The translations under genes and the position numbers were made by a program. Below the pieces are notes generated by a model, which worked only from the letters and a program-made list of their open reading frames with translations, ran no database searches and had not been told where the DNA came from. From the IMG/VR virus record IMGVR_UViG_3300035682_001995: a stretch of 17,607 nucleotides of DNA; one strand, 5' to 3'. The DNA comes from a virus. Of this stretch, positions 3,419-14,813 are shown one piece after another. How positions within the stretch are numbered: the stretch's first letter is position 1; every line of letters starts with the position of its first letter.

Positions 3419-3859
3419 CTACAAAGTATATTCAAAATTTTGCGTGTGTGAATTTATTTGCAGCAACTGAGCACCATTTTTGATGTGAAATTTGGTTGCC
3501 ATGTCCGTGAGAGGACTGAGAGTCACCAATCTTTGGATGTGACCCAAATTAGTCTTCACATGATTTCTCGCATGAACAATCATGGCCTGACCTCCACCTT
3601 TTTCAATAGCCCAGATGGTGTATAACACTGCCACTGTGGCATCAGTGCCCTGATAGCTGAACAATTGTTGCTCTTGAGTAGGCACTGTATCTGTGAATGC
3701 CACACATACCACACTCTGCGGCTCATCCTGCTCGTTTAACAGCACCCAAACACTGGCATTATTGCCCACTCGCTGATGTGGGGGAATATGAGGACGAACA
3801 GGATCTTCTTTGATCAATTCCATCAAGGGATCGTGGATATCCTCTAGAGTTACCAGCAT
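3419..3859 (-). CDS. Hypothetical protein (146 aa from the ATG at 3859). Weak resemblance to a GNAT-type acetyltransferase.
   Basis: The track ORF 3419..3913 starts at TTG. The internal ATG at 3859 has AGGAG 8 nt upstream. The segment VAVLYTIWAIEKGGGQAMIVHA is loosely like GNAT motif A. Confidence 0.4.
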   Translation of the reverse strand: MLVTLEDIHDPLMELIKEDPVRPHIPPHQRVGNNASVWVLLNEQDEPQSVVCVAFTDTVPTQEQQLFSYQGTDATVAVLYTIWAIEKGGGQAMIVHARNHVKTNLGHIQRLVTLSPLTDMATKFHIKNGAQLLQINSHTQNFEYTL

Positions 3860-3926
3860 GTGTGCGTCTCCTATAATACACATATTTAAAGACGCAGCAC
3901 TAGTGTATTTCAAATAGCTAGACTTT

Positions 3927-4184
3927 TTAGCACCAATTCAAATCAAAATATGTTTTGTATGCTTTGTCACAAAAATACACTGTGAGCAAAGTTTTTTTCT
4001 GATCACTGCTCCAATGCTGCCAACTGAGTTGGCCCATATGTTCCAGACACCATTTGATGATCAGTTGACTGCGTTCCTGATCCAGGTTGTGCAATTCAGT
4101 TTTGTAGGGCCAGTGCTTTGCCATGGGTTTGTATTTAAGATCTACTCTGCTAGGTATTGTGGATCCCACTGCAATACAAACCAT
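3927..4184 (-). CDS. Hypothetical protein (85 aa).
   Basis: Track ORF. It overlaps the next ORF by 43 nt in another frame. No SD. Confidence 0.3.
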   Translation of the reverse strand: MVCIAVGSTIPSRVDLKYKPMAKHWPYKTELHNLDQERSQLIIKWCLEHMGQLSWQHWSSDQKKTLLTVYFCDKAYKTYFDLNWC

Positions 4185-4372
4185 ACAAAAAGTTCATGAG
4201 TTCTAAAGATCAATGCCATATTCAAGGGATCAATATCCCAATCATCTGCGTCAAAATTATCCTTGCACCATTCTATTTGGTCCTTGACCAAATGTGGTAA
4301 TTTGTCCTTGTGACCAAAATTGACTATATCTATAGTGCGTAATTTATAGCTGGGATAGGGAACTGCTGTCAT
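4142..4372 (-). CDS. Hypothetical protein (76 aa from the ATG at 4372).
   Basis: Track ORF 4142..4381 starts at TTG. The first ATG is at 4372. It overlaps ORF 3927..4184 out of frame, so the two may be one frameshifted gene. Confidence 0.3.
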   Translation of the reverse strand: MTAVPYPSYKLRTIDIVNFGHKDKLPHLVKDQIEWCKDNFDADDWDIDPLNMALIFRTHELFVWFVLQWDPQYLAE

Positions 4373-4433
4373 CTTGTCCAAGAATGCGGCAAGAATTGTT
4401 GCAGAGTCAATTTGTAGGAGATTATGGAAATTT

Positions 4434-4558
4434 TGGTAGGCCCCCTCCGGTTCGAACGGAGATATGCTCGCTTATAGTTTGGGGATTGAGGAGTTGAACC
4501 TCATTGTGTAACCTACATCCCCCGAGGCGAGTTCATTCACCAATTATGATAGAGGCCC
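4434..4558 (-). tRNA. tRNA-Pro (anticodon CGG) with a 48-nt insert between positions 37 and 38 (insert 4473..4520). CCA is encoded.
   Basis: Hand-folded cloverleaf. Acceptor: GGGCCTC/GGGGCCT (two G-U pairs). D-arm: TCAT-AATTGGTGA-ATGA. Anticodon stem: CTCGC...GCGAG, with loop CTCGGG + insert + A. Variable region: CATAT. T-arm: CTCCG-TTCGAAC-CGGAG. Then A-CCA. Confidence 0.6.
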
Positions 4559-4575
4559 TTACCAACTGTTCATAT

Positions 4576-4602
4576 ATTATGTGCTAGATATGGGTTTGTC
4601 AA
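4576..4602 (-). promoter_or_regulatory. Sigma70-like promoter upstream of tRNA-Pro: TTGACA-N15-CATAAT (or N17-TAATAT).
   Basis: Minus strand reads gtgTTGACAaacccatatctagcaCATAATatatgaacagttggta, followed by the tRNA 5' end. Confidence 0.35.
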
Positions 4603-4706
4603 CACATAATATATAAATAAAGATGGTAATCCTGTTGCTACGAACAACAGGAAACCCGGCTTGGAGCCCCAGGCTGTCCCACACATATATTTACTTGGAG
4701 ATTCCT

Positions 4707-5195
4707 ATGTTTATCAATAACAAATATACCTCTTGGTATATCTCATTGGTTAGTAATGCTCAAACTAGAAATTTAGATAGATCTGTCTATACTGAAAAAC
4801 ATCATATTATTCCCAAGAGCCTAGGGGGCAATGATGCAAAAGATAATCTTGTTAGACTTACTGGCAAAGAACATTTTGTAGCACATTTATTACTTACCAA
4901 AATGACCTTTGGGGTCAATGCAAGAAAAATGGCCTTTGCCTTGTGGCGGATGACACAAGATAATAAGAAACGAGACAGGTTCCGAATGTCTTCTCGGCAA
5001 TATCAAAATATCAAAACTGGCATGAGCGAGGCAATGAAGGTACATAACAAAGGCAAGAAACTTTCTCCAGAGCATATTCAGAAAGTAAAAGAGGGAATAG
5101 CAGCAAAAGGCGGGGCACATAATAAAGGCAAATCTATGAGCGAGGATCAGAAACACACGCGCCTTTTGGCTAGGGGTGATTGGGAATGTTCATAA
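4707..5195 (+). CDS. HNH homing endonuclease with NUMOD3-like repeats. It ends at a TAA that interrupts a NUMOD3 motif.
   Basis: Translation reads MFINNKYTSWYISLVSNAQ...EKHHIIPKSLGGNDAKDNLVRLTGKEHFVAH (the HNH motif), then repeated GKKLSPEHIQKVKEG / GKSMSEDQKHTR blocks. GGAG sits 6 nt upstream of the ATG at 4707. The track ORF starts at 4623. Confidence 0.8.
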   Translation: MFINNKYTSWYISLVSNAQTRNLDRSVYTEKHHIIPKSLGGNDAKDNLVRLTGKEHFVAHLLLTKMTFGVNARKMAFALWRMTQDNKKRDRFRMSSRQYQNIKTGMSEAMKVHNKGKKLSPEHIQKVKEGIAAKGGAHNKGKSMSEDQKHTRLLARGDWECS

Positions 5196-5444
5196 GAAAC
5201 TCGCCAAAAAATATCTCAAGGGGTTAAGAGAAGAGCCGCAGATAGATCTAAACCCTATCAGAAAGGCATTCCTAGATCTCGTATGACATTTGTGTTACAG
5301 AATTCAATTACTCAAGAGCAGGTGGAAACCTGTAATTTGAGACAGTGGTGTGTATCCCAAGGATTCTCTAGTGGCATGATTTATCTGAATAAATCTCCCT
5401 GGAAGATAATATCCAAGGTACCCTTACATAAGGGACAATTGTAA
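5196..5444 (+). pseudogene. In-frame continuation of the HNH endonuclease after the TAA (likely the C-terminal DNA-binding part). Together this is a nonsense-interrupted homing endonuclease gene.
   Basis: The frame stays open for 82 codons right after the TAA. It reads S*ETRQKISQGVKRR...LRQWCVSQGFSSGMIYLNKSPWKIISKVP. A TAA-to-GAA change would restore a perfect NUMOD3 core (SEETRQKIS). There is no independent start or SD. Confidence 0.45.
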
Positions 5445-13513: not shown

Positions 13514-13634
13514 TTCAGCATAGTTATCACAAGTTTGGATATCAAATGCACAGTTACTCCTTGGCCGGACGGTTATGTTTTCTGCAATTCCTTCTAGGTC
13601 TTTTCGCACTGCATTTCTTCTATTACTAGTTGAT

Positions 13635-13774
13635 TGGTGCCCCCGGCCCGATTTGAACGGGCACAGCCTTTCCAGGCCAGCGGATTTCTGTTGGACTATC
13701 AGGATTGAACTGATATGAGCACCTGTTGCTCTTGTCCCTAAGTCCGCGTCGTCTACCGATTCCGACACGGGGGC
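13635..13774 (-). tRNA. tRNA-Leu (anticodon TAG; class II with a long variable arm) with a 51-nt insert between positions 37 and 38 (insert 13686..13736). CCA is encoded.
   Basis: Acceptor: GCCCCCG/CGGGGGC. D-arm: TG-TCG-GAATCGGTAGA-CGA, close to E. coli tRNA-Leu GGCGGAAUUGGUAGACGCG. Anticodon stem: GCGGA...TCCGC, loop CTTAGG + insert + A. Variable arm: GCCT-GGAA-AGGC. T-arm: GCCCG-TTCAAAT-CGGGC. Ends A-CCA. Confidence 0.6.
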
Positions 13775-13886
13775 AAACTCTACTATCTTCATAGTAATAT
13801 AGTATCATAGTTTAGTCAACTGTATAAATATAGGTACGGATCACGATGCGCCAACATCCATCCGCTCTAGACAAGAAAGGAAGATC

Positions 13887-14561
13887 ATGTCCAGCGTAAC
13901 TGATATTTATTCTATCTGCCCCAAGTGTGGCAATAGTTTTGATCCCTATTCCAAATATGGTGCCAAGAAATTCTGTAGCAGAAAATGCGCCAATGCGAGA
14001 ATACATTCACAAGAAGTAAAAGACAAAATTAAATCAAAATTGAAAGGAAGACCTAGCCACAATAAATGATTGCCATCTCCCAACCGTGGAAAAAAATTTG
14101 GATCTAAAAAAGATATAATTAAGATTTGCCCCATTTGTTCTAAATCATTCTCGGCAGCTAGAGTTACCTGTTCGAGAATCTGTTTCAAACAAAGAGCAAC
14201 AGAAAATGCACTCAAACAAGAAAAACATGGAGGAGGACACAAGGGCAAATACAAAGGATTTCATTGTGATAGTACATATGAACTAGCCTTTGTGATTTGG
14301 CATTTGGATCATAATATTGAGATTGCTAGATCAACTTCTGTGTATGATTACACCTACAAGAACAAAAAACACAAATATCGTCCTGATTTTGTAGTGGAAG
14401 GTGTGGAAATTGAAATCAAGGGATTTATGAGCAAGAGAGCTCAAGCCAAAAAGGATCAATGTCCCAATGTTATGGTAGTGGATAAGATAGACATACAAGT
14501 CTACATCAAGTATGTTCGCGAAACATACAAAGTAAGAGACCTGCGGAAGTTGTATGAATGA
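13887..14561 (+). pseudogene. Homing-endonuclease-like gene: tandem zinc ribbons plus a NUMOD-like motif plus a PD-(D/E)xK nuclease domain. It is split by an in-frame TGA at 14067-14069.
   Basis: Track ORFs 13887..14069 and 14070..14561 are in the same frame (...GRPSHNK*LPSPNRGKK...). Duplicated CPKCGNSF...CSRKC and CPICSKSF...CSRIC ribbons. NUMOD-like HSQEVKDKIKSKLKG. YRPDFVVEGVEIEIKG fits the PD...ExK pattern. SD AAAGGAAG lies upstream of the ATG at 13887. Confidence 0.5.
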
Positions 14562-14588: not shown

Positions 14589-14663
14589 TGGAAGGGGTGC
14601 CTCGATTTGAACGAGGACTAAAAGATTCAAAATCTTTTGTGCTAACCATTACACTACACCCCC
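14589..14663 (-). tRNA. tRNA-Gln (anticodon TTG). No insert. CCA is encoded.
   Basis: Acceptor: GGGGGTG/CACCCCT (G1-U72). D-arm: GTGT-AATGGTTA-GCAC. Anticodon arm: AAAGA-TTTTGAA-TCTTT. T-arm: CCTCG-TTCAAAT-CGAGG. Ends T-CCA. It sits 12 nt downstream of tRNA-Leu(CAG) on the minus strand, so the two are probably co-transcribed. Confidence 0.8.
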
Positions 14664-14675
14664 GTGGTATATTTT

Positions 14676-14813
14676 TGGTGCCCGAAGCCAGATTTGAACT
14701 GGCATTGTCTTTCAACAAACGGTTTTTGTTTAGGCTATTGGGAGTGACCCAACAAGGGTATCAAAATACCTTGCCTCTGAGACCGTCGCGTCTACCGATT
14801 CCGCCATTCGGGC
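14676..14813 (-). tRNA. tRNA-Leu (anticodon CAG; class II) with a 51-nt insert between positions 37 and 38 (insert 14725..14775). CCA is encoded.
   Basis: Acceptor: GCCCGAA/TTCGGGC. D-arm: TG-GCG-GAATCGGTAGA-CGC. Anticodon stem: ACGGT...ACCGT, loop CTCAGA + insert + A. Variable arm: TTGT-TGAAAG-ACAA. T-arm: GCCAG-TTCAAAT-CTGGC. Ends A-CCA. Confidence 0.6.

Follow-up and report, generated by a model that had tools for sequence, protein, structure and literature searches.

A predicted tRNA(CAU) gene of a freshwater jumbo phage, interrupted by a small minihelix-like insert

Can a phage tRNA gene whose anticodon loop is split by a 48-nt insert still give rise to a tRNA, which codons would this tRNA read, and by what route could the insert be removed? 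These questions are raised by positions 4434-4558 of a 17,607-nt viral sequence (IMG/VR record IMGVR_UViG_3300035682_001995; hereafter "the window", meaning the whole stretch of DNA that was analysed), which a first-pass annotation made from the letters alone had described as tRNA-Pro(CGG) with an insert at position 37/38. The comparisons presented here suggest that 4434-4558 holds a functional phage tRNA gene with an intron, that the window has three such genes, and that this tRNA most likely reads isoleucine or methionine codons, not proline. Coordinates of all features are collected in Table 1, and related loci are cited by our own L numbers.

ARAGORN with the intron option calls c[4434,4558] together with a 48-nt intervening sequence, exactly as the first-pass annotation had drawn the gene, and the cloverleaf with an encoded CCA that it described is borne out by the stems, A73 and CCA, all of which are present. 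Read on the minus strand from 4558 to 4434, the 125-nt gene (77 nt once the insert is removed) begins with GGGCCUC UA UCAU AAUUGGUGA AUGA A CUCGC, continues for 55 nt, and ends with GCGAG CAUAU CUCCG UUCGAAC CGGAG GGGGCCU A CCA. The acceptor, anticodon, and T arms form in the predicted fold of the spliced sequence, all four stems are kept, and the spliced loop (CUCAUAA) has 7 nt. The gene was called neither by ARAGORN in default mode nor by an Rfam scan, be it at the gathering threshold or at E<=10. The check with tRNA finders and covariance models that had been proposed in the first pass was consequently positive in its ARAGORN intron-mode part and negative for the Rfam tRNA model, which stays below threshold on the unspliced gene; the same model does pass threshold for sister interrupted genes (e.g., 44.8 bits). 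The expression signals are bacterial, as had been remarked before, with a sigma-70-type TTGACA-17-TAATAT at 4602 to 4574 on the same strand as the tRNA.

In order to place the insert, four versions of the gene were compared, namely those of the window (identical in contigs L001-L005), L603/L604, L479, and the IMG/VR locus L610. The major-vault-protein (MVP)-like protein of L603/L604 is 100% identical to that of the window over 97% of its length, and the one of L479 is 71% identical. In the four-way alignment, nothing around the insert is invariant other than CUC 5' of it and AUAA 3' of it. The base after CUC is G, C, G, and C (window, L603, L479, and L610, in this order), the base facing the first intron base is A, G, G, and G, and the corresponding columns (36/82) read G.A, C-G, G.G, and C-G. 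The exons of L603 differ from those of the window by three substitutions only, yet the insert differs: with a slash for each junction, the window reads CUC/G GGGGAU ... AUCCCC A AACU/AUAA, and L603 reads CUC/C GAAGAU ... AUCUUC G CAAG/AUAA. Because the flanking CUC and AUAA alone are invariant while the adjacent bases vary and covary, the insert is placed between C34 and A35 (4476-4523), which gives a predicted mature loop CUCAUAA with anticodon CAU, and of the two bases that follow CUC, the first is taken to open the intron and the second to open the closing helix. The 48-nt length given in the first pass stands, but its coordinates (4473-4520) and the 37/38 site do not agree with the comparison of alleles. 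A syntenic relative (L606) has an uninterrupted tRNA(CAU) with the same loop CUCAUAA, located after the MVP-like gene and an opposite-strand gene. A metagenome scan for an insert-less allele with the exons of 4434-4558 found none.

ARAGORN names the four alleles Pro(cgg), Arg(ccg), Pro(cgg), and Arg(ccg), as it presumes a junction near 37, and the same body (window vs. L603) thus receives two identities, Pro and Arg. The earlier version of the gene, a tRNA-Pro(CGG) with a canonical 37/38 intron (for which the spliced string would be GAACTCGCCTCGGGAGCGAG or CTCGGAAGCGAG), does agree with the ARAGORN report, with the presence of CUCGG in L479, and with the many tRNAs, GC-rich anticodons included, of related jumbo phages. 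Nevertheless, we consider it highly improbable, as the same body reads CUCCG in L603, and L610 likewise reads CCG at the same columns, which would turn both into Arg(CCG). Moreover, in L479 the base after CGG is A, so that a proline reading would be without G37 (A37 instead), and known tRNA-Pro species have G37. CCG is also nearly unused by the phage, being its rarest proline codon (6/153; AUA is used 32 times), and the GG of CUCGG is accounted for by the first intron base and the first helix base.

Read as CAU, the gene probably encodes a tRNA-Ile2, in which the phage's own TilS would turn C34 into lysidine. TilS acts on tRNA-Ile2(CAU), and an N-terminal catalytic domain of this enzyme (TIGR02432, E=1.9e-35, 122.5 bits vs. 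a cutoff of 93.6, profile positions 2-189 of 189) is encoded 3.5 kb from the tRNA gene; it is the likely modifier of C34 in the 4434-4558 tRNA. In E. coli, the TilS determinants vs. elongator tRNA-Met are C4-G69 and C5-G68; the window gene carries both pairs, and L479 carries G4-C69 and G5-C68. Two points weigh against this identity: the choice between Met and Ile2 depends solely on the co-encoded TilS, and a comparison of the body with 1234 phage tRNAs gave a mild excess of CAU tRNAs only, which is not decisive for identity. Together, a likely tRNA-Ile2 and a phage TilS suggest that the phage brings its own AUA-decoding system. The TilS of the window is without the usual C-terminal tRNA-binding domains, and a TilS also lies beside the MVP-like gene in L478, L603, and L604.

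Whether the structure is maintained was approached by counting pairs in the four-sequence alignment (a small sample) against a specified structure made of the cloverleaf and the two intron helices. Standard pairs form in 96% of the cells, and 19 pairs are changed on both sides, including two in each intron helix; none of 500 shuffles reached the observed pairing, and in slid controls 35-59% pair. Where the first base of the intron faces that of the tail, some alleles have G.A or G.G and others C-G. The observation is real and non-random, and selection acts on the insert structure. The four alleles represent three different tRNA bodies (acceptors GGGCCUC, GGGGGAU, and GGGCGUA) that keep all cloverleaf stems and both intron helices, and such strong differences between the exons with the stems kept argue against a decaying gene. 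A decaying pseudogene, left by a small mobile DNA insertion or by homing-endonuclease repair, would fit the homing-endonuclease genes that flank the tRNA genes and the swapping of tRNA cassettes between near-identical genomes, but its chance seems very slim: exon and insert stems are kept by compensatory change even in relatives whose neighbouring protein is only 71% identical, the insert has no target-site duplication, promoter and CCA are intact, and the sequence is identical in six independent assemblies.

RNAfold gives the insert a single closing helix (P1) with unpaired flanks. Just 5' of P1, G4523 opposes A4480 as G.A, a position that is C-G in alleles L603 and L610. The hairpin TGAGG-TTCAACT-CCTCA, already seen in the first pass and confirmed at 4487-4503, directly abuts the 3' strand of P1, and the same element recurs in other inserts. 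In the tail, the leading A lies opposite the intron's first base, and the other 4 nt are single-stranded up to the 3' junction. With a closing helix of 6-7 bp, a stacked 5-bp hairpin, and a 4-nt tail, the insert can be modelled as a mimic of a tRNA acceptor/T-arm minihelix; in the window gene, the T-like hairpin has 5 bp and a T-loop-like 7-nt loop, for ~12 bp stacked in all, and the L603 insert has 7 bp plus a 5-bp T-like stem (12 bp) with the loop UUCGAUU. The sequence 4476-4523 matches no Rfam family.

The insert is not isolated, as the window holds three interrupted tRNA genes, the other two being tRNA-Leu(UAA) and tRNA-Leu(CAA). Their closing helices differ (GGGGAU/AUCCCC, GGAC/GUCC, and AGGC/GCCU), but the three inserts follow a common plan consisting of the closing helix, a variable first hairpin, a second hairpin beside the 3' strand of the helix, and an A-rich tail; the second hairpin has the T-loop sequence UUCAAYN in two of the three. 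Further members of the family are present in L481, a 68% relative, and in the cultured T4-like Caulobacter phage Cr30 (NC_025422.1, 81134-81292), where an unannotated tRNA-Leu contains a 73-nt insert preceded by C only and followed by U33 and the anticodon CAA, which places the junction there at 32/33. Six inserts (three in the window and those of L479, L481, and Cr30) were checked by script, and in 6/6 the unpaired bases between anticodon stem and closing helix sum to 13 (7 of the loop and 6 of the intron). U33 is obtained throughout by a single partition, in which the helix is preceded by one intron base and followed by five; this partition yields the loops CUCAUAA, CUCAAAA, and CUUAAAA, each of which fits its tRNA body; where the first intron base pairs (L603, L610, and IMG/VR L263), there are 0 bases before the helix and 4 after. 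The position of the insert in the loop varies (32/33, 34/35, or 35/36) and the distance to the helix is constant, so any cut sites would have to be read from the structure of the intron. The 13-base rule holds for the curated family only, as flank lengths taken automatically over all ARAGORN intron calls were noisy and heterogeneous. A MAFFT alignment of the six paralogous inserts was structurally inconsistent, and no covariance model was built from it.

At the site of the interrupted tRNA-Leu(CAA) (window 14676-14813), an uninterrupted tRNA-Leu(CAA) is found in L003 (149-231) and L603 (2450-2532), and this interchange of interrupted and insert-less genes at one site argues for functional equivalence of the two forms. 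The uninterrupted genes have a different acceptor stem and otherwise identical flanks, i.e., a cassette swap within one phage population. The tRNA-Leu(UAA) gene (13635-13774) falls inside the 5' end of a called open reading frame (ORF; 13169-13792), whose start is probably an artefact. A G1.U72 wobble tops the acceptor of many tRNAs in these phages irrespective of the anticodon (window 4434-4558 and 14589-14663; L020:1496-1654; L481:17576-17650 and 17811-17936).

How does the element relate to known introns? The first-pass annotation had found no bulge-helix-bulge and had dismissed group I and II introns, and both judgements hold: no bulge-helix-bulge could be formed by hand in the window gene or in Cr30, the flank bases do not pair with the tail, and there was no Rfam match to group I or II introns at E<=10, the insert having 48 nt vs. 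~200 nt or more. Its broader view, that a small intron or some other processed element is present, remains a sensible reading of the 4434-4558 insert; a wholly new kind, however, it is not, as small tRNA introns called "enigmatic" were already reported for Lak megaphages (Devoto et al. 2019, PMC6784885). According to these authors, phage tRNA introns had not been reported before, and one Lak intron "may itself encode a tRNA" (PMC6784885). In our literature search, the Lak paper was the only report found of small phage tRNA introns, and none was found on a mechanism or on the Cr30 gene.

The Lak introns (PMC6784885) are alike in being small anticodon-loop inserts that are missed by bacterial-mode tRNA finders, have no Rfam match, and vary in presence or absence among related phages, and also in their acceptor-like 7-8-bp helix with an abutting T-arm-like hairpin GGUUCGAAUCC (Table S6 there, read by eye). 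They differ in length (79-114 nt vs. 48-51 nt in the window) and have an extra 5' hairpin and an A/U-rich linker, whereas the window inserts start the helix 0-1 nt after the 5' junction. Furthermore, they end 2-3 nt past the helix, were placed by tRNAscan beside position 37 rather than at 32/33, 34/35, or 35/36, and belong to Prevotella gut phages instead of freshwater jumbo phages and a T4-like Caulobacter phage. On these structural comparisons, the element is a shorter variant of a known but unexplained Lak-type class, with a clear structural rule.

Archaeal and eukaryal bulge-helix-bulge introns (EndA/Sen) are likewise short and located in the anticodon loop, and the archaeal ones vary in position as set by structure. 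Their pair of 3-nt bulges around a 4-bp helix cannot be drawn here, where a single helix lies 0-1 nt from one junction and 4-5 nt from the other, and where promoter and hosts alike are bacterial (Caulobacter for Cr30). Group I introns of bacterial tRNA genes (cyanobacterial tRNA-Leu(UAA) at 34/35; Patescibacteria, PMC13011429) share the anticodon-loop site, including 34/35, and often occur with homing endonucleases, but they span ~200 nt or more and are built around a P1-P9 core, with U.G at the 5' junction and G as the last base; the insert has none of these features. A new and very small self-splicing RNA, or twin self-cleaving ribozymes, could be suspected from the compact conserved structure, in which the first G is nearly invariant and G-C pairs adjoin the hairpin loop, and from the fact that no protein partner has been identified. 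This possibility appears very unlikely to us, since no Rfam ribozyme family matches even at E<=10 (small families such as hammerhead, twister, pistol, hatchet, and HDV-like gave no match in or near any insert), the paralogous inserts are too poorly conserved in sequence for a catalytic core, and 48 nt is below the size of any known self-splicing RNA.

The shape of the insert recalls tRNA-like elements. In mitochondrial tRNA punctuation and in the MALAT1 mascRNA, tRNA-like elements are excised by RNase P and RNase Z, and the places of cleavage within a longer transcript are marked there by an embedded acceptor/T-arm shape, as they would be here; the flanks are not rejoined in those cases, whereas formation of the tRNA would here need precise rejoining. 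With the 3' half of the tRNA-like domain of transfer-messenger RNA (tmRNA), the intron has in common GAUGYAGGUU and, next in order, a T arm (with the loop UUCAACU in the window gene), a helix strand, and a tail of 4 nt, all of which are found at the 3' end of tmRNA genes. In tmRNA, however, GAGGAUGUAGG is not paired to the 3' strand of the acceptor, and the intron is without G3.U70; the resemblance may be due to chance and generic T-arm similarity. The motif of GAUGYAGGUU and a T arm also matches tmRNA 3' ends or att sites in IMG/VR loci L608, L611-L615, L617, and L621.

The best overall explanation in our judgement, and one to which we give about an even chance, is that the insert is excised by enzymes that read tRNA shape and that the exons are then ligated. 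Given the minihelix geometry, RNase P, or an enzyme of the same geometry, would cut just 5' of the helix at the 5' junction (4524/4523), with the 5' exon acting as its leader, and a second endonucleolytic cut four bases past the helix would generate the 3' junction (4476/4475). The exons, held by the anticodon stem and ending in 3'-OH and 5'-phosphate, would be sealed by an RNA ligase of the T4 Rnl1/Rnl2 type; the predicted products are GAACTCGCCTCATAAGCGAGCATATC for the window gene under the CAU reading and the junction ...ACAGAC/UCAAAAUCUGU for Cr30. In T4, repair by Pnkp and Rnl1 has a phage RNA ligase seal an anticodon-loop break held by the anticodon stem; the break there is host-nuclease damage and no sequence is removed, and the role at an intron is here only proposed. 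Cr30 encodes two RNA ligases, including an Rnl1/gp63 homologue, and the relative L605 a PF09414 RNA_ligase protein above the Pfam threshold. More specifically, this would amount to a third tRNA-splicing route in bacteria and phages (RNase P and an endonuclease acting on a minihelix mimic, followed by a phage Rnl-type ligase), a tentative proposal that we hold to be possible but doubtful.

Several observations weigh against excision by such enzymes. The stack measures 12 bp in the window gene (counting G.A), L603, and Leu(CAA) and ~11 bp in Leu(UAA) and L481; the T-like hairpin of Cr30 and L263 has 3 bp and lies 3 nt away from the helix; and the insert tails are without CCA. RNase Z usually cleaves behind the discriminator instead of four bases beyond the helix, and we know of no enzyme established for the required 3' cut. 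No RNA ligase is visible in the 17.6-kb window, and T4-like and jumbo phages commonly encode RNA ligases whether or not they have introns.

A true intron could also be removed without RNase P, by a dedicated phage or host splicing endonuclease that reads the closing helix and makes a 4-nt staggered cut. Both junctions are indeed fixed relative to the helix, not the anticodon stem, and many window ORFs have no family match. We still rate this as rather unlikely, as no candidate nuclease has been identified, a T-loop-like hairpin placed as in a tRNA minihelix would be left unexplained, and the spread of the family over T4-like and unrelated jumbo phages favours a ubiquitous host enzyme. Alternatively, the insert is never removed and rejoined, the RNA either staying intact to divert anticodon nucleases or tRNA-binding factors as a decoy or sponge, or releasing a minihelix and tRNA halves by RNase P-type cleavage. 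This would be in line with the selection that acts on the insert structure itself, with the many IMG/VR type II tRNA-like genes in which acceptor, D, and T arms are kept around 90-115 nt without a recognisable anticodon loop, and with the stable tRNA-like RNAs rnaC and rnaD of T4, whose function is unknown. We take it as a serious though unlikely alternative: in every family member the flanks join into a canonical 7-nt loop with U33, the resulting anticodons fit the bodies (Leu bodies giving CAA or UAA), and CUC and AUAA are invariant while their neighbours drift, features that a decoy would not need. The interchange of interrupted and uninterrupted tRNA-Leu(CAA) at one site also speaks against a decoy.

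The consequences reach beyond a single gene. Bacterial-mode tRNA finders miss such interrupted genes, and intron-aware modes presume 37/38 and assign wrong anticodons, e.g., Pro(CGG) vs. Arg(CCG) for one body where the evidence gives CAU; genes missed or misnamed in this way would bias phage tRNA repertoires, codon-usage arguments, and host predictions. We know of no way by which such small introns are removed in bacteria. The fixed geometry (a helix at the 5' junction, a T-arm-like hairpin, and a 4-nt tail) offers a concrete and falsifiable hypothesis on the mechanism, and with Cr30 in a standard model bacterium, the question left open for Lak phages in 2019 becomes addressable. If true, the third route would make tRNA maturation a housekeeping task of T4-type RNA ligases and link them functionally to the fungal and plant tRNA-splicing ligases that they resemble.

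Table 1. Features of the interrupted tRNA gene, its insert, and related elements of the window (sequences as RNA except for the promoter)
Feature	Position	Strand	Evidence
Interrupted tRNA(CAU) gene	4434..4558	minus	ARAGORN intron mode, covariation over 4 alleles, fold of the spliced sequence
5' exon, G1 to C34, ending C32 U33 C34	4524..4558	minus	CUC invariant in four alleles, following base variable
3' exon, A35 to CCA end, starting AUAA (A35 U36 A37 A38)	4434..4475	minus	AUAA invariant in four alleles, preceding base variable
Predicted intervening sequence, 48 nt, GGGGGAUGUAGGUUACACAAUGAGGUUCAACUCCUCAAUCCCCAAACU	4476..4523	minus	Boundaries from allele comparison
P1 closing helix, 5' strand GGGGAU	4517..4522	minus	Pair counts; two P1 pairs changed on both sides
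P1 closing helix, 3' strand AUCCCC	4481..4486	minus	Pair counts
T-arm-like hairpin UGAGG-UUCAACU-CCUCA	4487..4503	minus	Fold; two pairs changed on both sides
Tail AAACU	4476..4480	minus	Flank lengths constant in seven family members (script or by eye)
Sigma-70-type promoter TTGACA-17-TAATAT, ~15 nt upstream of the tRNA	4574..4602	minus	10/12 positions match
Free-standing HNH homing-endonuclease gene	4623..5444	plus	PHROG homing endonuclease, E=1e-42; genomic context only
TilS N-terminal catalytic domain, 200 aa	8046..8648	minus	NCBIfam TIGR02432
Interrupted tRNA-Leu(UAA)	13635..13774, 51-nt insert at 13688-13738	minus	ARAGORN intron mode
Interrupted tRNA-Leu(CAA)	14676..14813, 51-nt insert at 14727-14777	minus	ARAGORN; Rfam tRNA model 44.8 bits, ~53-nt insertion

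The window itself had no match in INPHARED or IMG/VR, and an exact-protein look-up retrieved the near-identical contigs L001-L005 from freshwater metagenomes. Its MVP-like gene (5516-8086, minus strand), which is conserved in jumbo phages, encodes 856 aa that include the shoulder and repeat domains of major vault protein. Homologues on contigs of up to ~400 kb point to a jumbo-phage lineage, and there are >5,600 homologues in all, many of them on contigs of 100-570 kb. A tail fibre, a SleB-like hydrolase, Pth2, a saccharopine-dehydrogenase-like enzyme, and GIY-YIG and HNH homing endonucleases are also encoded. In the relatives L006, L007, and L478, no tRNA genes were found in the stretch obtained.

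The HNH gene next to the tRNA is nonsense-interrupted, as had been noticed before: the ORF at 4623-5195 (plus strand) stops after codon 190 (5193-5195) and the same frame resumes for 82 codons. At the same place, L605 has an HNH+NUMOD3 gene. Codon 61 is an in-frame stop in a 224-codon ORF at 13887-14561 (plus strand) whose motifs are zinc-finger-like and NUMOD-like. Its counterpart in L001 is called as one 224-aa gene; the window copy may be a second nonsense-interrupted homing endonuclease beside tRNAs. The stretch 11966-13015 contains a tRNA-Arg(UCU) and an adjacent GIY-YIG/SegE-like gene (12173-13015, plus strand); in L001 and L003, neither gene was called at this site, and a 248-aa gene is found there instead.

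Wider searches were carried out in phage, viral, cellular, and metagenomic sequences. BLAST of the interrupted genes against 50,697 phage records gave no relative of the insert except Cr30, which was reached via a match of the tRNA-Leu exon. The tRNA-Leu 5'-half matches in BcepSauron, RsoM2USA, and Atu_ph07 were rejected as ordinary unannotated tRNAs, and rnaC/rnaD of T4 were rejected as homologues, having a tRNA-like 3' end but no comparable insert. A 14-base motif from the 3' part of the insert gave chance matches only in IMG/VR. When 185,579 genomes of bacteria and archaea were scanned with a tRNA-Leu-based pattern, the matches were normal tRNA-Leu genes, coding DNA matched by chance, and, in Pseudomonadales, duplicates of the tRNA-Leu 5' half, and none was an insert of this kind; in a second metagenome scan, only normal tRNA-Leu genes were among the matches listed.

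Pattern scans of IMG/VR returned >100 further interrupted tRNA-like genes, several of them above the Rfam tRNA threshold, which suggests that interrupted tRNA genes are common in viral contigs; the set is heterogeneous and includes the eukaryotic-type tRNA-Tyr introns of giant viruses. A tRNA-like family found in L150, L187, L207, L230, and ~20 other IMG/VR loci has an acceptor (AGUCAGG/CCUGACU), a D arm (GGCGGAAUUGGUAGACGC), and a T arm (CAGGUUCGAAUCCUG) that hardly vary, around a hypervariable, structured middle of 90-115 nt without a recognisable anticodon loop. Judging from these sequences, non-decoding tRNA-like RNAs seem to exist in phages. In L201, a ROOL RNA (3837-4428, 312 bits) lies directly upstream of an interrupted tRNA-Leu(UAA) (4435-4570), and the end of this insert repeats the 5' strand of the anticodon stem. 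In the Pseudomonadales metagenome-assembled genomes L268, L282, L288, L303, and L356, 1-2 copies of the first ~27 nt of tRNA-Leu, with a conserved ~60-nt segment (GGAGCCCAAGUGUCGCGAUAGGCAGGACGCC...) after them, are located immediately upstream of the real gene. Finally, L189 (53-724; also L162 and L256) contains a dense run of tRNA-like pieces in which the "introns" called by ARAGORN consist of the T arm of one piece and the 5' half of the next, and this run looks interleaved or truncated.

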